Positions 27,483 through 35,007 of a stretch of 64,000 nt of DNA are shown here, piece after piece. Position 1 is the first letter of the stretch. Every line of letters begins with the position of its first letter. Location of the stretch: NCBI GenBank assembly GCA_965226495.1, contig OZ245365.1:864001-928000 (forward strand). The letters run 5' to 3'. The DNA is from Candidatus Marinacidobacterales bacterium. GTDB taxonomy: Bacteria > Acidobacteriota > Vicinamibacteria > Marinacidobacterales > DATDRI01. The notes below the pieces were generated by a model. That model was given only the letters and a program-made list of their open reading frames with translations. It had not been told where the DNA came from and did no database searches. The position numbers were made by a program, and so were the translations under genes.

Positions 27483-28925
27483 ATGGCGGAATCGACGAGT
27501 ATTATCATCTTTGGAGCTTCCGGTGACTTGACGCGGCGCAAGCTCGTGCCGGCGCTCTACAACCAGTTTCGCAAGGGTCGTCTTCCGAAGAACCTCCGAA
27601 TCGTGGGTTTCGCGCGACGCGATTATAGTCATGAGAAGTTCAGGGAGCTCATGGAGGCGGCGATCAAGGAATTTACGCCCGATGGGTACGATGAATCCGC
27701 CTGGAACGAGTTCGCTCCGAGCCTTTTTTACGTGCGCGGCAACGTCAATGAGCCGCTGTCGGGATTGGACGAATTTCTTCGCGAGAGGGAGAGCCAACAC
27801 TGCAATCGACTCTACTATCTGTCGATCGCCCCGCAGTTCTACCAGCCACTGGTGGAGCAATTGGGCTCGTCGGGAATGGGCCGCGAAGAACAAGGATGGC
27901 GCCGCATCATCGTGGAGAAGCCCTTCGGCCACGACCTCGCTTCCGCCCAGTCACTCAACCGCGCCCTCCACGCGGTTTTCGAAGAACATCAAATTTTCCG
28001 TATCGACCACTATCTCGGTAAAGAGACTTCTCAGAACATTCTCTTCTTCCGTTTCGCGAACACGGTCTTCGAGCCGATCTGGAACCGCAACTACGTCGAT
28101 CATGTTCAGTTGACGGTCGCCGAGAGCGTGGATGTGGGGCACCGCGCGGCCTTCTACGATGCAACCGGGGTGGTTCGGGACATGTTTCAGAACCATCTAC
28201 TCCAGTTGCTGACGCTCGTCACGATGGAGCCGCCGGCGTCGTTCCGTGCCGATGAAGTGCGGAACGAGAAGGCCAAGGTTCTTTCGGCGATCCGTGCGAT
28301 TCCAGGCCCCGAAATCATCGAGGAAACGGTCCGCGGGCAGTATCGAGGCTACTGCGATGCCGAAGGAGCCGCGCCCGGCTCTCAAACCGAGACCTACGCG
28401 GCGATGAGACTCTTCATCGACAATTGGCGTTGGCAAGGTGTTCCGTTTTATCTACGTTCTGGCAAAGCGCTTACCACGAAGACCTCCGAGATCATCATCC
28501 AGTTCCGCCGCCCGCCGCATAACATGTTTTCCATGGAGCCTGGGTCGTCGATCCGTCCCAACTATCTGGCGCTCTTCATTCAACCGGACGAGGGCATGCA
28601 CCTTCGCTTCGAAGCCAAAGTGCCGGACACGGTCGCAGAGATGCGGGCCGTCGACATGGAGTTCCATTATGCCGATGACTTCGGTAAAGACTCCATCCCC
28701 GAAGCCTACGAACGTCTGTTGCTCGACGCGTTACAAGGCGACGCATCCTTGTTCACGAGGAGTGACGCCATCGAAATCTCTTGGAAGCTCATCGATCCCA
28801 TTCTTCAGGAATGGGTGGAGTCGGGAAAACCTCCCCTCTCCATCTACGAGCGCGGGAGTTGGGGCCCCACCGAGGCGGATGAGCTTCTCGACAGAGACGG
28901 CCGCTGCTGGTTGCGCGGCTGTTGA
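27483..28925 (+). CDS. zwf: Glucose-6-phosphate 1-dehydrogenase
   Basis: GASGDL, EKPFG, RIDHYLGKE, RDMFQNHL and NWRWQGVPFYLRSGK motifs. Confidence 0.97.
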   Translation: MAESTSIIIFGASGDLTRRKLVPALYNQFRKGRLPKNLRIVGFARRDYSHEKFRELMEAAIKEFTPDGYDESAWNEFAPSLFYVRGNVNEPLSGLDEFLRERESQHCNRLYYLSIAPQFYQPLVEQLGSSGMGREEQGWRRIIVEKPFGHDLASAQSLNRALHAVFEEHQIFRIDHYLGKETSQNILFFRFANTVFEPIWNRNYVDHVQLTVAESVDVGHRAAFYDATGVVRDMFQNHLLQLLTLVTMEPPASFRADEVRNEKAKVLSAIRAIPGPEIIEETVRGQYRGYCDAEGAAPGSQTETYAAMRLFIDNWRWQGVPFYLRSGKALTTKTSEIIIQFRRPPHNMFSMEPGSSIRPNYLALFIQPDEGMHLRFEAKVPDTVAEMRAVDMEFHYADDFGKDSIPEAYERLLLDALQGDASLFTRSDAIEISWKLIDPILQEWVESGKPPLSIYERGSWGPTEADELLDRDGRCWLRGC

Positions 28926-28957
28926 ACGGGGTTAGCAGGGCGTCTGGAGGGAAAAAG

Positions 28958-28988
28958 GGGAGCTCTGGCCCCTACCGAGGCGGATGAG
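28958..28988 (+). repeat. Partial copy of zwf 3' region (left arm plus 14-bp core)
   Basis: GGGAGCTCTGGCCCCTA-CCGAGGCGGATGAG resembles zwf 28854-28883 GGGAGTTGGGGCCCCA-CCGAGGCGGATGAG. Confidence 0.7.
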
Positions 28989-28997
28989 ACCACTCGG

Positions 28998-29225
28998 TCA
29001 TTGCCAATTTTTCTGCCGCGCCCAGTCGATGATGTAATCCGAAGCGACCTCGCCCTGTTCGTCCTGCCAGAAGTGGCTCGCCTCGAAAAGACCAAGTGGG
29101 ATTGCCATGAAGCACTAGTACGACCGGGCCCTTCCCTTCGTCGACGTAGTGCACTACCGCTCCACTGTCGGTCTCAAGAAGTGGTTCTCAAATGGAAACA
29201 GTTCTTTGTCTACCTCAAACTTCAT
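28998..29225 (-). pseudogene. Haloalkane dehalogenase-like alpha/beta hydrolase remnant
   Basis: [16 protein letters not shown], a frameshift, then [23 protein letters not shown] joined directly to C-terminal [12 protein letters not shown]...IIDW...stop. The catalytic core is missing. Confidence 0.75.
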
Positions 29226-29248
29226 TAGCCTTCCCGCCTTGCTCAAGT

Positions 29249-29794
29249 TCAGGTGGTGACGCGGAGTGGGGCCGGAGGCGCGACCTGGTCTATCCTGCCG
29301 GTTTCTACGTCGTAGACGAGGCCGGTGACGATGAGTGCGTCTGGTGTTCCAGGTGTGTGGCGGAGTCGCTCGAGATCGGCTTGCACCGTCCGGGCGGGGT
29401 CGGTGACCGCCATCGCCGCGACCTCGTCGTCACTCAGGCTGAGCCGTTTCGCCACCTGTTGCCGGAAGGGCGGCTTGGCGAGGCGCCCCATTCCGCAGTC
29501 GGTGTGGTGGATAACGACGAGCTGCAGCTGCCCGGCGCCAGGTCCCGGCAAGTTGGCGGCGAGAACGCTGAGGACAGCGAGGTCTCCCATCACGGCAGGG
29601 GTGATTCTGCCGCCAGCGTTGCGGATAACGACTGCGTCGCCGAGCCCGAGGCCCAAGACATGTGCAGGGTCGACGCGGGCGTCGAGGCAGGTCACGATAA
29701 TCGCCGACAGGCGGGGTCGAATGTTGAGCTCTCTACCCTCGAACTGCTCGGCAAAGCTCCGGTTGCGATCCAGTAGTGTTTCGAGGTCCGTCAT
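29249..29794 (-). CDS. Beta-class carbonic anhydrase
   Basis: Zn ligands CLDAR and HHTDCG; IRNAGG; GLVYDVETG. ATG at 29794. Confidence 0.88.
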   Translation of the reverse strand: MTDLETLLDRNRSFAEQFEGRELNIRPRLSAIIVTCLDARVDPAHVLGLGLGDAVVIRNAGGRITPAVMGDLAVLSVLAANLPGPGAGQLQLVVIHHTDCGMGRLAKPPFRQQVAKRLSLSDDEVAAMAVTDPARTVQADLERLRHTPGTPDALIVTGLVYDVETGRIDQVAPPAPLRVTT

Positions 29795-29873
29795 CTCTTT
29801 CCGTCCCTTTCTTGATGCGGTTGAACCGCACGCTAGCTTGATCGTTTGTAGGATGTCAACGGTCCGGGTCCAC

Positions 29874-29929
29874 CCGAGGCGGATGAGCTTCTCGCTAAAG
29901 TCGGCCGCTGCTGGTTGCGGGGATGTTGA
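29874..29929 (+). repeat. Diverged copy of the last 56 bp of zwf
   Basis: 50/56 identical to 28870-28925; encodes EADELLAKVGRCWLRGC* versus EADELLDRDGRCWLRGC*. Confidence 0.9.
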
Positions 29930-30009
29930 TCGAGAGTCGCGCCGGTTAGAGACTCCAGAAATCAGCAGGGCTAAGCCACCACAAAACGCCCAATCCAACA
30001 CCGCGTGCG

Positions 30010-31092
30010 TCAGACGGGGACGGGGCCGCTCTGGACCTTCACGACCTTCGCGACAAAGGGTGAGGTCATAGCGCGGAGGAGCGCGCTGTAGTTGAGCTGG
30101 AATGTGACCTCGGCGCCGACGGACAAGGGGGAGTGGCTGGAGTCCGCGACGAGGTGGTCGCTGCTGGCCCCGAGAATCTCGATTCCGGGAGGCGGGTGGA
30201 GGCCGCACGGATCGGTGTCCTGGCGTCCAACGGCGAGGATCGTCTGCGAGACGTTGCCCCGATCGGTGGCGGGCGGCTTCTCCCCAAAGGCGGTTTGTGC
30301 GATCTCGCCCCAGGGCTGTGATGGCTTGACCTTCGACTCGATCACTTCGGCGATGAGCTGGATGGCGTCGGTGTGCAGCCCGTCGATCGGTTGACGATGG
30401 AGGGTCTCCCGACCGAGCAATAGCGATTCACCTAAGCGGAGATTGTTGATCCGCCCGGTGTCCGCGCCGCTAAGTGCCCATTGAAGGTTGCCGGAGTTGC
30501 CCCCGGAGACGATGCCGAGCATTGGGCCGAACGTCGCGTCGATCGAATCGGCCAAGGCGGACAACTCCGCCATGTTCTTGGCGTCGGGTGACACTCCGCT
30601 CTGGCAGGCGAGGTTGGTGCCGATGCCTTTGAGCTCGATGTTCGGGAAGCGAAGCGTTTCGCGCACGGTTTTCTCGAGGTCGCCGGGCATGATGCCTTCG
30701 CGGAGGTCTCCAAGTTCGACCATGAGCACGATCCCGTGCGTCCGACTCGCAGCCTGCGCGGCCGACGAGAGCTTGCTGATGACATCGAGCTCGGTGTTGA
30801 AGCTCACGTCGGCGTGCGTTACCACCCGTTCCGCCTGACTGAGCATCGGCGAGCGGATGAGTGTCATCGCTGCCGGTACGCGCGAACGGCGCATCCCTTC
30901 GATGTTCTCGATGCGTGAGTCGCCGAGCGCACTCACGCCTGCCCGGAGCAACGTGCCGGCGATCTCGGGGGAGCCGAGGAACGCCTTCGTCACGCCCGTG
31001 ACGGAGATGCCACGATCGGCTAGCCGTTCGACCAGTGTTCGGGCGTTGTGGTGGATCTTGTCGAGGTCGATCTCTAATCGCGGCGCGGTCAC
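30010..31092 (-). CDS. Alanine/ornithine racemase family PLP enzyme
   Basis: PRLEIDL.KI..N, GVTK (PLP Lys), DSRIEN, MVELGDLREG, GTNLAC, SGGNS and GASSDH. GTG overlaps the upstream stop (GTGA). Confidence 0.88.
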   Translation of the reverse strand: MTAPRLEIDLDKIHHNARTLVERLADRGISVTGVTKAFLGSPEIAGTLLRAGVSALGDSRIENIEGMRRSRVPAAMTLIRSPMLSQAERVVTHADVSFNTELDVISKLSSAAQAASRTHGIVLMVELGDLREGIMPGDLEKTVRETLRFPNIELKGIGTNLACQSGVSPDAKNMAELSALADSIDATFGPMLGIVSGGNSGNLQWALSGADTGRINNLRLGESLLLGRETLHRQPIDGLHTDAIQLIAEVIESKVKPSQPWGEIAQTAFGEKPPATDRGNVSQTILAVGRQDTDPCGLHPPPGIEILGASSDHLVADSSHSPLSVGAEVTFQLNYSALLRAMTSPFVAKVVKVQSGPVPV

Positions 31093-32288
31093 CGTGCGCC
31101 GTCGGTCAGTTTCTCCTCGAGTTCCGGGAACGCCGCAAGGATCATCTCCACCAGACGTTCGGGTGAGCGGGTCAGCGCATCGGTGGCGGGGATGCCGAGT
31201 TCGCACTCATACAGCGTGATGGCCGCGTCGACCTCAGCCTCGGTCATGTTCTCGTGGTTGATTGTGAGGCCGATGACTTTCGTGTCGGAGAAGGTCTGGA
31301 TGAGGTTGATCTCGGTGGCCGGTGTCGGCATCGCCATCTGTTCGAAGTCGCAGCGATGGGTCCGTCCCGGTGCGTGCTGCAGCACGACGGCGTCGGGGCG
31401 GCTGCCTCGGAGGACCAAGGCAGAGGTCGAGTAGGCGGGGTGACTCAGTGCGCCCTGGCCTTCAATGATGATCACGTCGGGCTTCTCGCCTTCGAACGCT
31501 TCGATGATGGTGGCTTCCAACTCACCCGAGCAGAACTGCGACGGGACGGCATCGAGCGCAACGCCGTAGCGGGCTCCTTGGATCAGGCCGGTCTGGCCGG
31601 TCCCGACGAGAACCGCTTTCACTCCGCGATCGTTGAGGGCGCGGGTGAGGATGGTGGCGGTGGTGCGTTTGCCAATGGCGCAGTCGGTGCCGAGCACGGT
31701 GATTCGTGGGCATGTGACCTGGGTGATGCGATCGCTGAAGCTCCGTAGGTCCTTCTTGGCGCGGGGTCTTCGGACGTCGAGGATCTCTACGTTGCTCGCT
31801 GCGCTCGCCGCTACGAACTCGGGGTCGTCGTTCAAGAACTCATGGAGACCGTTCACGACGTTCATCCCGCGACGTAAGGCCTCGAGGACGAGGCCCCGCT
31901 CGGACTTCGACAACATGCCACTCGCCGGCGCCATCCCGAAGATGAAGTAATCGGGTACACCTCCAGCGTGCGCCAGTGCGTCGTCGAGGTCGCGGCAGAT
32001 GGGGATCGCGAGCGGCCCCTCGCCGAGCGACACCCCGGCATCGAGACCTGCCTTCTCGCTGTCGATGACCGAGAGGATCTTGTAGACCTCCGAGTGACGA
32101 ACGAGCCCGTTGGCGGTCTTGCCGTCGACGGCACCGAAGTTCGCTTCGCAATAGACGATGGCAGTTGCAACTGGTCGCCGTTTACGGCTGGATGGTAGTT
32201 GCGTGGATATCGTCGCCTCGTTTCCGGCGGTAAGGGTATGATCGGCAACGGGTGCGTTCACCGAAGGGGAGAATGGGGCTGTGGACAT
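31089..32288 (-). CDS. DUF1611 domain protein (DgcN-like, P-loop)
   Basis: GKTANGL, NGLHEFL, GTDCAIGKRTT, GTGQTG, IEGQGAL.HP and VLQHAP motifs. Confidence 0.88.
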   Translation of the reverse strand: MSTAPFSPSVNAPVADHTLTAGNEATISTQLPSSRKRRPVATAIVYCEANFGAVDGKTANGLVRHSEVYKILSVIDSEKAGLDAGVSLGEGPLAIPICRDLDDALAHAGGVPDYFIFGMAPASGMLSKSERGLVLEALRRGMNVVNGLHEFLNDDPEFVAASAASNVEILDVRRPRAKKDLRSFSDRITQVTCPRITVLGTDCAIGKRTTATILTRALNDRGVKAVLVGTGQTGLIQGARYGVALDAVPSQFCSGELEATIIEAFEGEKPDVIIIEGQGALSHPAYSTSALVLRGSRPDAVVLQHAPGRTHRCDFEQMAMPTPATEINLIQTFSDTKVIGLTINHENMTEAEVDAAITLYECELGIPATDALTRSPERLVEMILAAFPELEEKLTDGAR

Positions 32289-32400
32289 CGTCGCTCCTCG
32301 AGTTGAGCTCAGAGGAGGCGACCGGATCGTGCCGGCCGAAATTAGCCGGATGTCAAGGAGAGGTCCCCGCTAAGTTTAATTCGTGCTGCCTATGGTATCA
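32289..32400 (-). promoter_or_regulatory. Structured 5' leader (candidate riboswitch/attenuator) with extended -10
   Basis: On the minus strand: TG-A-TACCAT, stem AAAcTTAGCGGG/TCCgGCTAATTT, competing stem CCGGCT/GGCCGG, and CTCCTC pairing with the SD GAGGAG. Confidence 0.45.
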
Positions 32401-32529
32401 CACCCGCGATAGGCAAGTATCGGGGAAGCACTCATCAGCCGACAGCACCATTCCACTAATTCCCATTTAGTGAGAGAGTACCGCTCCCGAAGCGCCACAG
32501 GCGCCCGGAATCAAGAGGAGGTCACCCCG

Positions 32530-35007
32530 TTGAGTCTACAGAGACCCGCATTCCCGCGGCTCGCCGCGACCATCATGTTTTTGGCGACGTTCATACCGTT
32601 CGGCACGGTGGAGGCGCAGACCGAGCCCCCGATCGTCCAGCCGGGCGCTCCCGGAGAGCCTAGTCGGCAGATCTCCGCGGAGGAAGCCTCGGATCTCGCT
32701 GGTATCCTGTATACCGAAGCCGACGTGAAGTTTATGCAAGGAATGATCTCTCACCATGCCCAGGCGCTCGAAATGACCGAGCTCCTCGCGTCGCGGAGTG
32801 AGCGCGAGGTCATGCACACGCTTGCGAAACGCATGGAGCTCTCCCAAGAGGACGAGATCAAGATGATGCAGGAATGGCTCCGGTCACACGACCAGGAGGT
32901 CACTGCCGTGGAGGCTCATCACGCGCATGGCGCGGTCCTGATGCCGGGCATGCTGACCGCCGAGCAGATGGGCCGTCTTGAACAAGCGCGCGCGATCGAG
33001 TTCGACCAAGCTTTCCTCGAGCTCATGATCAAGCATCACCAAGGCGCCTTGATCATGGTCGAGAATCTCCTCGCCCAGCAGGGCGCGGCACAGGACTCGG
33101 CCATCTACGGGTTCACTTCCGACATCGTCGCCGATCAGAGCATGGAGATCGATCGTATGGGGGGCATGCTGGCGGAGCTCTCCTCCGATCCTCGGGTCCA
33201 TCTCAAAGCTGGCTTTCGGGATGCCGGTGAGGCTGCGTTGAATCTGGAGCTCGTCGCGACGCTTCCAAAGCCGGAGGGTTTCTTCGATCCCCACGCGCCG
33301 GCGGGTTTGCCCGTACCGCCCGAGCCAGGAGACGAGGAAAGTGAGGAGCCAGAGGGCGATGCTGACGGCGAGACAGAGGATGAGGGAGAGGAGGCTGAAG
33401 AATCTGCCCCGGAGACGGGAAGGCCTGGTCTTTTGAACTTCGCGAACTCGGATCTCGCATTCGCGGGAGACGTCGTGTTCGAGGGCAATTTCCACGGCTT
33501 CAATACGTACAACGTCGAGGATCCGATGGTGCCACGGCTTCTGGGTTCTGTGGTGTGCCCGGGTGGTCAAGGCGATGTGTCCATCATTGGCAACCTCTTA
33601 ATAATGTCGGTCGAGCAGACACGGGGCCGACTCGACTGCGGCCTTCAGGGTGTTGCGGAGCCAGTCAGCGGCGCACGGTTCCGTGGAATCCGGATCTTCG
33701 ATATCAGCGATGTGCGGATCCCGAAACAGGTGGCCGCGGTTCAAACGTGCCGAGGCTCACACACGCACACCGTAGTGACCGACGTCGATGACGAGGGCAA
33801 CGTCTATGTCTTTGGTTCCGGCACGGGCTCGGTGCGCTCTGGAGAAGAGCTCGCCGGGTGTTCGGACGCGGGTCCGGGCGCGGATGAGAACACGGCTCTA
33901 TTCAGCATCGACGTCATCCAAATCCCGTTGGCGAAACCGGAAGAAGCGCGCATTGTGAACCGGCCGCGCATCTTTGCGGATCCGAATTCTGGCGTGATCG
34001 CAGGCTTGTGGAAGGGAGGCGATCATGGTCCGGGCACACAGAAGACTTCCGAGACCAACCAGTGCCACGACATCACGGTGTTTCCCGAGATGGGCCTCGC
34101 AGCGGGGGCGTGCTCCGGCAACGGCATCCTCCTCGATATCTCCGATCCGGTGAATCCGGTCCGGCTCGATCAGGTAGTCGACCCGAGCTTTGCCTACTGG
34201 CACTCGGCGACGTTCAACAACGACGGTACCAAAGTGATATTCACCGACGAATGGGGCGGCGGCATGCGCCCTCGATGTCGAGCCTCCGATCCCAAGCAGT
34301 GGGGCGCCAATGCGATTTTTGACATCGTCGATCGCAAGTTGCAGTTCCGAAGCTACTTCAAGTTGCCGGCGCCGCAAACCGAGGAGGAGAACTGCGTGGC
34401 CCACAACGGGTCTCTCGTCCCTGTCCCGGGGCGCGACATCATGGTTCAGGCTTGGTATCAGGGCGGCGTCTCTGTATTCGATTTCACCGATTCCTCTAGA
34501 CCGGTCGAGATTGCGTTCTTCGACCGCGGCCCGATCGATGGGAGTAAGCTCGTCATGGGGGGCCATTGGTCGGCGTACTGGTACAAGGGATTCATCTACG
34601 GTACGGAGATAGCTCGGGGCCTCGACGTGCTGAAACTCGAGCCGAGTGAGTTCCTGTCGCAGAACGAGCTCGGTGCTGCGTCACTGATCACCCCGGAGGT
34701 CGTCAATGCGCAGCAGCAACGGCGGGTCGATTGGCCGGCGAAGCCCGTTGTAGCGAGGGCGTATCTGGACCAGCTGGGGCGGAGCCGGGCGCTTACCTCG
34801 GAGAGGGCCGAGGCTTTGACGGAAGCGCTCGACCGCGCCGAGCAAATCCTCGCCAGCGGTACTTCAGACAAAGGCCGAACTTCGGGGCAGCTCGACGCGT
34901 TCGCAACCGAGCTCGAGCGCGATAGCGCTGGGGCGGGCCGACGCGACCAGGCTCGACTCCGGTCACTCGCGGAGACCGTGAAAGGCGTTGCCGACAGCCT
35001 AAGGTGA
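32530..35007 (+). CDS. Exported DUF305 - LVIVD-repeat fusion protein
   Basis: Signal peptide; DUF305 motifs FMQGMISHHAQA and FLELMIKHHQGA; acidic linker; NSDLAF, CPGGQGDV, CRGSHTHT, CHDIT, WHSATF and CVAHNG. TTG start after GAGGAG. Confidence 0.85.
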   Translation: MSLQRPAFPRLAATIMFLATFIPFGTVEAQTEPPIVQPGAPGEPSRQISAEEASDLAGILYTEADVKFMQGMISHHAQALEMTELLASRSEREVMHTLAKRMELSQEDEIKMMQEWLRSHDQEVTAVEAHHAHGAVLMPGMLTAEQMGRLEQARAIEFDQAFLELMIKHHQGALIMVENLLAQQGAAQDSAIYGFTSDIVADQSMEIDRMGGMLAELSSDPRVHLKAGFRDAGEAALNLELVATLPKPEGFFDPHAPAGLPVPPEPGDEESEEPEGDADGETEDEGEEAEESAPETGRPGLLNFANSDLAFAGDVVFEGNFHGFNTYNVEDPMVPRLLGSVVCPGGQGDVSIIGNLLIMSVEQTRGRLDCGLQGVAEPVSGARFRGIRIFDISDVRIPKQVAAVQTCRGSHTHTVVTDVDDEGNVYVFGSGTGSVRSGEELAGCSDAGPGADENTALFSIDVIQIPLAKPEEARIVNRPRIFADPNSGVIAGLWKGGDHGPGTQKTSETNQCHDITVFPEMGLAAGACSGNGILLDISDPVNPVRLDQVVDPSFAYWHSATFNNDGTKVIFTDEWGGGMRPRCRASDPKQWGANAIFDIVDRKLQFRSYFKLPAPQTEEENCVAHNGSLVPVPGRDIMVQAWYQGGVSVFDFTDSSRPVEIAFFDRGPIDGSKLVMGGHWSAYWYKGFIYGTEIARGLDVLKLEPSEFLSQNELGAASLITPEVVNAQQQRRVDWPAKPVVARAYLDQLGRSRALTSERAEALTEALDRAEQILASGTSDKGRTSGQLDAFATELERDSAGAGRRDQARLRSLAETVKGVADSLR

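Follow-up and report, generated by a model that had tools for sequence, protein, structure and literature searches.

Among the known systems in which N-acylation and racemisation are joined, the NSAR route of Geobacillus kaustophilus runs from D- to L-amino acids by means of an acyltransferase, an NSAR, and an L-specific deacylase, and members of the OSBS/NSAR subfamily can be promiscuous N-succinylamino-acid racemases. PLP racemases require a free α-amine and cannot use an N-α-acylated substrate. For the DUF1611 family, DgcN and DgcA reportedly make up a catabolic pathway for D-glutamate, and DgcN is, to our knowledge, the only DUF1611 protein to have been characterised. By the name of its NCBIfam entry (NF041892), and by excerpts of the papers that cite it (PMC12363236, PMC13759103), DgcN is a CoA-dependent, D-specific D-glutamate N-acetyltransferase, and an excerpt of the first of these gives it a catabolic role (PMC12363236). 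On the racemase side, the described counterparts are Orr of clostridial ornithine fermentation and OrnR of Salmonella (STM2358). For OrnR, the residues described in an excerpt of PMC13397332 are K36, R129, N161, C164, and R220, with roles as the PLP lysine, a catalytic cysteine that replaces the tyrosine of alanine racemase, two PLP-binding arginines, and an asparagine that replaces the stacking histidine.

Here, we analysed a 64,000-nucleotide stretch of DNA from a Candidatus Marinacidobacterales bacterium (the window), in which a conserved RNA leader, a DUF1611 gene, and an Orr/OrnR-type racemase gene follow one another on the minus strand (Table 1). The TGA stop of the DUF1611 gene (31091..31089) overlaps the GTG start of the racemase gene (31092..31090), an arrangement from which translational coupling of the two is predicted, and the ATG at 32288 is backed as the true DUF1611 start by an SD-to-ATG spacing that is kept across 34 aligned leaders. 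The initial annotation, which had described a DUF1611 gene with an intact P-loop coupled through GTGA to a gene of the alanine/ornithine racemase family, proved accurate in its open reading frames, Walker A motif, and overlap. As a whole, we read the locus as a self-contained, mobile cassette of two enzymes that would combine racemisation with irreversible N-acylation under the gating of the leader, and that leans toward salvage; we place this tentative reading a little below even odds (a probability of about 0.45).

Table 1. Positions in the window of the genes, the leader elements, and the transferable unit.
Feature	Position	Strand	Description and basis
DUF1611 gene	32288..31089	minus	399 aa; Pfam DUF1611_N 89 bits and DUF1611_C 235 bits
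Orr/OrnR-type fold-III PLP racemase gene	31092..30010	minus	360 aa; Ala_racemase_N; NCBIfam racem_Orr 367 bits
GTGA overlap (DUF1611 stop/racemase start)	31089..31092	minus	read directly from the sequence
Conserved 5′ leader RNA, ~90 nt	32377..32289	minus	conservation, P2 covariation, and covariance model
Leader P1	32374..32365 with 32317..32308	minus	three-helix model
Leader P2 hairpin	32349..32345 with 32336..32332	minus	covaries at every pair
Leader P3		minus	small helix 3′ of P2; three-helix model
Leader anti-SD	32318..32312	minus	can pair with either the P1 5′ strand or the SD
SD	32299..32294	minus	can pair with the anti-SD
Transferable unit (leader and two genes), ~2.5 kb	29933..32402		comparison with same-genus genomes

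The Walker A motif (G-x4-GK[RT]) of the DUF1611 protein is intact, with G200, D202, G206, and K207 invariant among the 24 family members aligned, and its relatives in the PDB are 2G0T, 2OBN, and 7XRJ. Against the NCBIfam model for DgcN (NF041892), the protein scores 176.8 bits, which is below the equivalog cutoff of 480, and DgcN shares 27–31% identity with the racemase-partnered DUF1611 clade. In the DUF1611 tree, the window protein falls within a clade of 89 rows (SH-aLRT 90) that is made up of all 78 racemase-partnered proteins, 9 that lack a racemase, and 2 from contig ends. This clade stands apart from an 11-row sister clade of PALP/dipeptide-epimerase-type DUF1611 proteins, and lies far from a DgcN-type protein whose partner scores as a true DgcA (431 bits for a DgcA cutoff of 400). 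Marking the partner genes on the phylogeny, as the initial annotation had proposed, placed the PLP-partnered proteins in a clade of their own, separate from the enolase-partnered ones, and by these sequence comparisons the window protein is not a DgcN equivalog and belongs to a separate, racemase-partnered clade. The racemase-less members (9/89) are mostly from Actinomycetota, and because of them the DUF1611 protein may be able to function without the racemase. By analogy with DgcN, as the one characterised family member, the window protein is presumed to be an acyl-CoA-dependent N-acyltransferase. A whole clade of DUF1611 proteins has exchanged its racemase partner for a PLP enzyme, which would force the reactions into a different order.

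The racemase matches the NCBIfam model racem_Orr (NF040742) over its full length with a score of 367.4 bits, below a cutoff of 480 bits that was reached by no genome of our 401-genome phylum sample, the aminomutase-operon copy itself scoring 401 bits. In an alignment of 7 family members, K36, R131, N160, C163, R219, and Y335 are invariant. Here, K36, C163, R131, R219, and N160 match the catalytic set of OrnR, a mapping made by motif and near-identical numbering with the Salmonella sequence outside the alignment, and the window racemase thus appears to keep the Lys/Cys catalytic pair and PLP-site residues of Orr and OrnR (the PLP lysine, the catalytic cysteine, both arginines, and the asparagine for histidine). 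It is unlike them in scoring below the 480-bit cutoff, in having DUF1611 as its partner, and in lying outside an aminomutase operon. In fact, no Lys/Orn aminomutase (PF09043) was detected in the genome of the window (G000) or in the same-genus genome G402, the search having picked it up in the positive control (G172), and canonical ornithine fermentation was thereby ruled out. Nor is there a decarboxylase/transporter operon of the OrnR type among the neighbours of the pair at the locus.

A dgcA elsewhere in the genome, foreseen by the initial annotation as an argument against its proposal, was not found, as two enolase-superfamily genes score 35 and 106 bits with the DgcA model (NF042940) against a cutoff of 400. 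The gene with 106 bits is of the MenC/OSBS type (menC_lowGC_arch 374 bits, cutoff 200), is without adjacent men genes, and is found 3.9 Mb away amid the housekeeping genes uppS, cdsA, dxr, and rseP. Compared with the DgcN–DgcA pathway, the window locus shares the DUF1611 fold and P-loop, the coupling of a DUF1611 gene to a racemase gene, and, on our reading, the logic of an irreversible stereo-inversion via an N-acyl derivative. In contrast, the partner is a fold-III PLP racemase for a free α-amine, whereas DgcA is an enolase-superfamily N-acyl racemase; moreover, a basic substrate is more probable than an acidic one, and the cassette has an RNA leader of its own and is mobile. The Geobacillus kaustophilus NSAR route is alike in being a small module that joins N-acylation and racemisation for an irreversible enantiomer conversion, but its racemase is from the enolase superfamily and acts on the N-acyl compound, and its acyltransferase is a GNAT, neither of which applies to the window cassette. 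As for the PALP/epimerase-type DUF1611 cassettes, these likewise hold a DUF1611 protein and a stereo-inverting enzyme in a conserved operon, although the DUF1611 clade (the 11-row sister) and the partners (a fold-II PLP enzyme and an enolase epimerase) are different, and there is no match to the leader.

The pairing of the two genes extends well outside the window. The 401-genome phylum sample has 19 Orr-like genes, of which 10 immediately follow a DUF1611 gene on the same strand and one more is truncated at the end of its contig. Among the 80 closest DUF1611 loci from a species-level genome collection covering many phyla (the best 80 of 591 relatives), the racemase is located 0–45 nt downstream in 69, one of which (L064) is a partial match. 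Moreover, when metagenome loci were found via the leader alone (80 of 119 matches taken), the racemase was present in 44 of the 47 loci having at least 1.7 kb downstream, and natural fusions of DUF1611 with Ala_racemase_N account for 5 of 11 long homologues. Chance falls far short of explaining such a pairing, and the misgiving of the initial annotation that it might not hold in other genomes was dispelled by the 69/80 loci and 10/19 Orr-like genes; judged by the adjacency counts and fusions, DUF1611 and the racemase appear to be a conserved functional unit. In the literature on DUF1611, DgcN, DgcA, and COG3367/PF07755/COG3457, we found no description of a DUF1611–PLP racemase pairing or of the leader, and the RefSeq labels of the plasmid copy inspected are only "DUF1611 domain-containing protein" and "alanine/ornithine racemase family PLP-dependent enzyme".

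The leader sequence is conserved across 34 genome loci, with the conservation extending ~40 nt into the coding region. For the three-helix model, which is our own and was tested on both alignments, 87.7% of cells pair in the 34 genome loci (≤53% with the partners slid), and 94.5% pair in 86 distinct sequences (≤53.5% slid), the latter alignment (A4) having been fitted to the model and part of its P1 fixed by the search pattern. In both alignments, P2 covaries at 5/5 pairs, while P1 is 89–94% paired over the two; clear compensatory changes are seen only in P2, and P1 and P3 are backed mainly by conservation and one-sided changes. RNAalifold alone gave P2 and one 3-bp stem, and the minimum-energy fold is comprised of P2 and an SD-sequestering hairpin (z = -2.4). 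The covariance model of the leader has a single match in its own genome (E=1e-22), and a search of Rfam 15 (4227 families) over 28500-33500 on both strands returned 0 matches at E<=1. Of the 74 metagenome loci selected through the leader, 70 have DUF1611 immediately behind it (66 under a strict distance criterion and 4 with an alignment that overlaps the match). At many pair-bearing loci, the Rhodobacteraceae group and L035-L038, L040, L042, and L043 among them, the leader was not detected. The suggestion of the initial annotation that the operon has its own RNA-level control is supported by this ~90-nt leader, its covarying P2, its SD-sequestering helix, and its link to DUF1611.

With a ~90-nt conserved 5′ UTR, a covarying helix, an anti-SD that can pair with either the SD or the closing helix, and a tie to one gene family across phyla, the leader resembles translational riboswitches with an SD-sequestering platform; it is unlike them in matching no Rfam 15 family, and its ligand sensing is something that we infer. 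We consider it unlikely that the leader is a new riboswitch class that responds to the cassette substrate, either a D-amino acid or a basic amino acid in free or N-acylated form, and that turns on a cross-phylum stereo-inversion cassette. If true, it would be the first D-amino-acid riboswitch, and would come with a new two-step chemistry for environmental D-amino acids, namely racemisation of the free amino acid and then DUF1611 acylation. As an orphan riboswitch-like element, the leader could also reveal the true substrate of the cassette.

Scans of the surrounding sequence gave no sigma-70 promoter match across the leader region and one terminator-like site, which is within the racemase gene on the other strand and within chance. 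By eye, no sigma-54 -24/-12 element was seen upstream of the pair. Sigma-54 activator genes are found near the pair in 6 loci. Contigs from two metatranscriptome runs, which as RNA-library contigs are not proof of transcription, match stretches of the DUF1611 gene without a difference (X19 at 31542-31765 and 31849-32044, X20 at 31435-31609), and, with the same reservation, an RNA-library contig of a relative in X20 spans the leader (32290-32375) with 7 differences and 1 gap.

Comparison with other genomes of the genus delimits the transferable unit. G402 matches 29866-32402 of the window at 90% identity, between zwf and a DUF305 gene, and the unit is absent between these two genes in G401, G403, and G407 (the last an unpublished genome), where they are 750, 840, and 73 nt apart, respectively. 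The 67 nt at 29866-29932 repeat the zwf 3′ end, and this repeat brackets the neighbouring carbonic anhydrase insert. This downstream carbonic anhydrase gene was rejected as an operon member, being a separate insertion that is absent from G402. Moreover, 8 plasmid records carry the unit at 57–61% identity, conjugative and mobilizable plasmids included (a native carrier is plasmid pP97_c of Phaeobacter porticola P97), and the pair has an integrase or transposase gene as a neighbour in L037, L038, L039, L042, L107, and L109. The leader and two genes behave as mobile cargo across very different bacteria. Like integrase-less islets and cis-mobilizable elements, they form a ~2.5-kb two-gene unit that is present or absent in close relatives and has no recombinase of its own; unlike these, the window cassette is not at a tRNA gene (none in 20000-42000 of the window) and is without a bracketing repeat (none found in the window). 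PADLOC gave no defence-system match for the DUF1611 protein, the racemase, or the upstream repeat protein, and a protein scan of viral contigs returned 0 loci.

On the reading that we prefer, the Orr-type racemase would interconvert, by a Lys36/Cys163 two-base mechanism, the D and L forms of a free and probably basic, ornithine-like amino acid, and the DUF1611 protein would N-acylate one enantiomer, thereby making the stereo-inversion irreversible. In the default state of the leader, the anti-SD would be held on the SD and translation blocked, and formation of the alternative helix P1, in which a ligand probably helps, would draw the anti-SD away and free the ribosome-binding site. Since a PLP racemase needs a free α-amine, racemisation would come before N-α-acylation, and the order of steps would therefore differ from that of DgcN–DgcA. 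The chemical argument of the initial annotation stands to the extent that a PLP racemase cannot act on an N-α-acylated substrate, though it does not fix which enantiomer is acylated. For salvage or disposal, D-amino acids, which in some genomes may come from adjacent or fused peptidases, would pass through the racemase and then the acylation trap into ordinary metabolism. Here, one racemase is fused to a VanY/Peptidase_M15 (VanX-like) domain, and peptidases of the M81/MlrC (5 loci), S51 (3), and M19 (2) families neighbour the pair, in all at ~11 of 89 loci. We lean to salvage rather than synthesis because such minority partners are peptidases for unusual or D-containing peptides, and these, together with the catabolic role of DgcN, give a faint hint of that direction. 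What acylation would contribute to a D-to-L salvage is conjectural, as the racemase alone would suffice for this. Soils, sediments, and seawater contain a large pool of organic nitrogen in the form of D-amino acids, and this pool is poorly understood.

Alternatively, the racemase might make the D form of an abundant L-amino acid and a D-specific DUF1611 protein acylate it, with the N-acyl-D-amino acid then being an osmolyte, an envelope part, or a signal. The need for a free α-amine, which puts racemisation before N-α-acylation, agrees with such a route, as do the tight coupling and fusions, which would suit channelling of a D intermediate, and a switchable leader, which would be sensible for a pathway draining an L-amino-acid pool; DgcN, the sole characterised relative that we know of, points the same way. 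By its NCBIfam name and by excerpts of PMC12363236 and PMC13759103, DgcN is D-specific. However, the neighbourhoods of the pair loci show no conserved gene for an exporter, a ligase, or any other user of the product, the two genes travel as mobile cargo among phyla and lifestyles that differ widely, the adjacent carbonic anhydrase gene belongs to an insertion unrelated to the pair, peptidase fusions and neighbours suit degradation better, and the racemase-less clade members would be left without a source of D-substrate. For these reasons, the biosynthetic route to an osmolyte or envelope component that the initial annotation had put forward looks doubtful to us.

The order of steps could be the reverse if DUF1611 acylated a side-chain amine (N-δ/N-ε of ornithine/lysine) or another non-α group, with the racemase then acting on a product whose α-amine is free. 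Acylation first is chemically allowed in this case, the racemase is from a basic-amino-acid family, and DUF1611 is the constant member that carries the leader, but no known family member acylates a side chain and we hold this to be improbable. An ordinary DgcN-like system, where DUF1611 acetylates a D-amino acid, a distant enolase-superfamily N-acylamino-acid racemase completes the conversion, and the PLP racemase is independent, could draw on the OSBS/NSAR-family gene of the genome (menC_lowGC_arch 374 vs 200, without adjacent men genes). That gene, however, has a score of 106 for a DgcA cutoff of 400 and is 3.9 Mb off among housekeeping genes, and the DUF1611 clade is defined by its PLP partner across phyla, sometimes in fused form, all of which makes such a system very improbable indeed. 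It might also be that the DUF1611 protein of this clade is an ATP-using kinase or ligase for the racemase product, or that the upstream block is a protein-binding or promoter element and not a ligand-sensing RNA. While the Walker A P-loop is intact and invariant, PALP and other partners occur in other DUF1611 cassettes, and a TTGACA-like hexamer lies within the unpaired, strongly conserved block of the leader, there is no sigma-70 promoter match over the region, P2 covaries at 5/5 pairs, which is not required of DNA-level elements, and the SD/anti-SD arrangement is typical of RNA control, so that we give either variant little chance of being right. The leader-gated cassette that we favour is small, self-sufficient, and mobile, which reduces the question to two enzymes and one 90-nt RNA, and native copies of it are present in culturable marine bacteria, e.g. 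Phaeobacter porticola P97.

The DUF1611 protein of the window contains both domains of its family by Pfam, and its Walker A motif is intact, with key residues that are invariant in an alignment of 24 relatives. Against the equivalog model for DgcN, the D-glutamate N-acetyltransferase whose partner is the enolase-superfamily racemase DgcA, it scored 177 bits (cutoff 480). Its stop codon and the GTG start of the following racemase gene overlap as GTGA. The racemase aligned end-to-end with the ornithine racemase (Orr) model at 367 bits (cutoff 480) and retains Lys36, Arg131, Asn160, Cys163, and Arg219. In the accessible text of a 2025 study on Salmonella OrnR, the counterparts of these residues are the PLP lysine, the catalytic cysteine, two PLP arginines, and an asparagine that replaces the stacking histidine (PMC13397332). 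DUF1611 and Orr-like genes each occur once in the host genome (one contig of 6.34 Mb, 94.8% complete).

Coordinates of the cassette, its proposed leader helices, and neighbouring or comparable features (window positions, unless a DUF1611/leader locus, L, is named)
Feature	Position	Strand	Remark
DUF1611 gene	32288..31089	minus	399 aa
Ala_racemase_N gene	31092..30010	minus	360 aa
Leader RNA	32377..32289	minus	conserved ~90-nt block, upstream of DUF1611
P1 (proposed)	32374..32365 with 32317..32308	minus	closing helix
P2 (proposed)	32349..32345 with 32336..32332	minus	hairpin
P3 (proposed)			3-bp helix
Joining strand			17 nt, strongly conserved
β-Carbonic anhydrase gene	~29860..29249	minus	in ~1-kb insert
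zwf-end direct repeat	28862-28928 / 29866-29932		67 nt, 85% identical
zwf-end repeat, third copy	28967-28988		partial, 22 nt
Divergent neighbour	32470-35007		845 aa
Upstream repeat protein, examples	L106:2946-3791, L040:4563-5558, L058:3076-3918, L067:2875-3753, L119:2229-3446
Racemase-peptidase fusion	L035:5328-7064		genome G007
Leader with nucleotidyltransferase	L166:200-1194, L187:1991-3432
Orphan leader copy	L112:6538-6642	minus	30 bits, E = 5e-5

The pairing of the two genes is conserved beyond the window, as seen among Orr-like genes, at the nearest DUF1611 loci, and in natural fusions. In an even sample of 401 genomes from the phylum of the window, DUF1611 matches passed the Pfam cutoff in 65, and 19 Orr-like genes were found at E < 1e-70. 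Ten of these, counting the window's own, directly follow a same-strand DUF1611 gene, and another is truncated at a contig end. Two are of a higher-scoring type in genomes without DUF1611, one confirmed inside a classical ornithine aminomutase operon and the other from a congener, and six form a lower-scoring subfamily whose host genomes also lack DUF1611. At 30 DUF1611 loci of this sample, the partner is a PLP racemase (10 loci), an enolase-superfamily gene (eight loci, including L022 of the unpublished genome G152), or an upstream fold-II PLP gene (five loci), the last often with an unnamed ~480-aa protein downstream; at seven loci, no partner was recognisable within 1.5 kb. A species-level scan (one genome per species, with a DUF1611 alignment as query) gave 591 relatives. 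The best 80 of these share 53-85% identity with the window's protein and come from Acidobacteriota, Alpha-, Gamma-, and "Delta"-proteobacteria, Planctomycetota, Verrucomicrobiota, Chloroflexota, Actinomycetota, Nitrospinota, Bacillota, and Bacteroidota. Here, a racemase gene begins 0-45 nt 3′ of DUF1611 in 69 of the 80 loci (L064 being a partial match only), while the 11 others comprise two at a contig end, one with just 728 nt of room, and eight true absences. Fusions of DUF1611 and Ala_racemase_N in one chain account for five of 11 long homologues. A 1762-aa protein from a eukaryote protein set (P0011) unites the other DUF1611 cassette in a single chain, with domains of the creatininase, DUF1611, fold-II PLP, and enolase-superfamily types.

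The partner-annotated DUF1611 phylogeny suggested by the initial annotation placed the PLP-racemase-partnered proteins in a clade separate from the DgcN type. In this tree (from a quick run of IQ-TREE, with SH-aLRT as the sole support measure), one 89-row clade with a support of 90 holds all 78 racemase-partnered proteins, nine without a racemase, and two at contig ends. Its sister clade (support 99) has 11 proteins, partnered by a fold-II PLP gene, a dipeptide-epimerase-like gene, or none recognised. A DgcN-type protein whose neighbour scored 431 bits as DgcA (cutoff 400) sits on a long branch far from the 89-row clade. Within that clade, the branching of this quick tree does not follow taxonomy, which fits horizontal transfer of its members: a Bacteroidota sequence is nested in a Rhodobacteraceae group, and the rows nearest to the window's protein are Acidobacteriota and Planctomycetota sequences.

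The pair is also plasmid-borne in eight records (57-61% identity). The two inspected were a conjugative Vibrio cyclitrophicus plasmid and the mobilizable Phaeobacter porticola pP97_c, where both cassette genes are annotated by family name only. Integrase, transposase, or mobilisation genes adjoin the pair in L037, L038, L039, and L042, and integrases are found in L107 and L109. In the congener G402, the cassette occupies the same zwf-DUF305 interval (90% identity to 29866-32402), and it is absent from the congener G401 and from G403 and the unpublished G407 of the same family, with zwf-DUF305 spacings of 750, 840, and 73 nt. Neither a tRNA nor a bracketing repeat was found with the cassette in this window.

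The RNA-level control claimed in the initial annotation gains support from the conserved leader, with its covarying P2 hairpin and a predicted fold that would sequester the Shine-Dalgarno (SD) sequence. Of the 80 genomic loci, sequence profiles recovered the leader in 32, and a covariance model added four more; the profiles also found it in two of nine phylum-sample pair loci. In 34 leader sequences, 87.7% of cells pair, as against at most 53% with partners slid, and P2 has compensatory changes at all five pairs. For 98 model-aligned matches (86 distinct), the values are 94.5% and at most 53.5%, the alignment being fitted to the model, and P2 again covaries at 5/5 pairs, both partners having changed in 28 cells. 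Changes in P1 and P3 are mostly one-sided, part of P1 being fixed by the search pattern and the alignment again fitted to the model. The P1 3′ strand contains the anti-SD CCUCCUC, which in the minimum-energy fold (-36.3 kcal/mol, z = -2.4) pairs with the SD GAGGAG just 5′ of the ATG rather than within P1. The covariance model has a single match in its own genome (E = 1e-22; next E = 0.2) and none at E < 0.7 at canonical orr loci or at DUF1611 loci with another type of partner. No Rfam 15 family matches the leader.

A gene-blind metagenome scan with the leader motif as sole query produced 119 matches, and 80 of them were analysed. Downstream sequence of 300 nt or more is available at 74 of these 80 loci; among the 74, DUF1611 lies right 3′ of the leader in 66 by a strict rule, and its alignment overlaps the motif in four more. 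A racemase is also present in 44 of the 47 leader-selected loci that extend 1.7 kb or more downstream, and five leader-selected loci are in decay. Since the leader still precedes DUF1611 in Microbacterium loci without a racemase, it belongs to DUF1611. In L166 and L187, the leader and first ~13 codons are kept, with a nucleotidyltransferase as gene body (PF00483/PF12804) and then a CobD-like aminotransferase/decarboxylase fragment (L206 is a broken copy); from these, the regulatory module, ORF start included, seems swappable. The second leader copy in L112, placed inversely 3′ of the racemase with no DUF1611 after it, looks like what is left of a further cassette. In Vibrio penaeicida (L131), an additional DUF1611 gene, this one lacking a racemase, lies 2.6 kb upstream.

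From the cassette anatomy, we argue for a two-step module in which the PLP racemase would take a free amino acid as its substrate (judging by the enzyme's family, most likely a basic one) and the DgcN-family protein would then acylate one enantiomer. PLP chemistry requires a free α-amine, so α-nitrogen acylation cannot precede racemisation, and on this the initial annotation had the order right. The enzymes are of known families, and the proposed logic resembles known acylation-coupled routes of stereo-inversion; the partner swap, separate clade, leader, and mobility had no description that we could find in the searchable literature. DgcN is D-specific, going by its name and the accessible passages of citing papers, and a distant homologue is predicted, in the accessible part of PMC13759103, to make N-succinyl-L-glutamate; thus, stereochemistry may vary within the family.

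As to purpose, the initial annotation favoured biosynthesis of an N-acyl-D-amino acid as an osmolyte or envelope component. We lean instead towards salvage or disposal of D-amino acids, on the basis of a minority of loci, because a peptidase is found fused to the racemase and others beside the pair, the precedent is catabolic, the unit spreads like cargo, and no product-using gene was seen at pair loci. The racemase of G007 has a fused C-terminal VanY/Peptidase_M15 region of D-Ala-D-Ala dipeptidase type (36.6 and 32.7 bits, each above its cutoff). Peptidase genes near the pair include M81/MlrC in five loci and S51 directly upstream in three, with an M19 dipeptidase in two racemase-less loci. 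No third gene is universal among the pair loci compared, and no conserved exporter, ligase, or transporter was found there. A switchable leader is sensible for salvage and biosynthesis alike, since it is hazardous to leave a racemase running freely on a proteinogenic or near-proteinogenic amino acid. The main source of interest in the cassette is this orphan leader, through which the substrate question can be approached by experiment.

A DgcN-like system with its dgcA elsewhere in the genome is not what we found. The window's genome has two enolase-superfamily genes, one galactonate-dehydratase-like and one MenC/OSBS-type, and neither is dgcA; the MenC-type protein scored 106 bits as DgcA (cutoff 400) and 374 bits with its own model (cutoff 200). 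Conceivably, it could be a promiscuous N-succinylamino-acid racemase. Nothing links its gene, which follows uppS, cdsA, dxr, and rseP 3.9 Mb away, to the cassette. Lysine/ornithine aminomutase was not found in this genome or its congeners, while the positive control (G172) was detected.

Directly 5′ of DUF1611 in 18 loci, mostly Rhodobacteraceae, is a secreted, cysteine-containing protein of ~280 aa, with a signal peptide, then 7-8 tandem ~35-aa repeats with conserved Trp, Cys, and Gly positions; no Pfam family reaches its cutoff. The Rhodobacteraceae copies are part of a conserved block of six genes that also encodes three small unnamed proteins. Sigma-54 activator genes occur near the pair in six loci, and in G007 the racemase fusion is followed on the same strand by genes for a histidine kinase and a sigma-54 response regulator. 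Actinomycetota clade members without a racemase (L091, L101, L093, L124, and L128, the Microbacterium copies retaining the leader) have among their neighbours a convergent M19 dipeptidase, an upstream arginine deiminase, and a PemK toxin gene together with an ammonium transporter.

In the window, the β-carbonic anhydrase gene between zwf and the cassette was ruled out as an operon member, being a separate insertion that is bracketed by direct repeats of the zwf 3′ end and absent from G402. One further copy of this insert occurs elsewhere in the same genome (78% identical), and others are in G408 and G416 (87-89%). The divergent neighbour carries a DUF305/CopM-like metallochaperone domain at its N-terminus and a choice-of-anchor B domain at its C-terminus, and it is kept beside zwf in relatives without the cassette.
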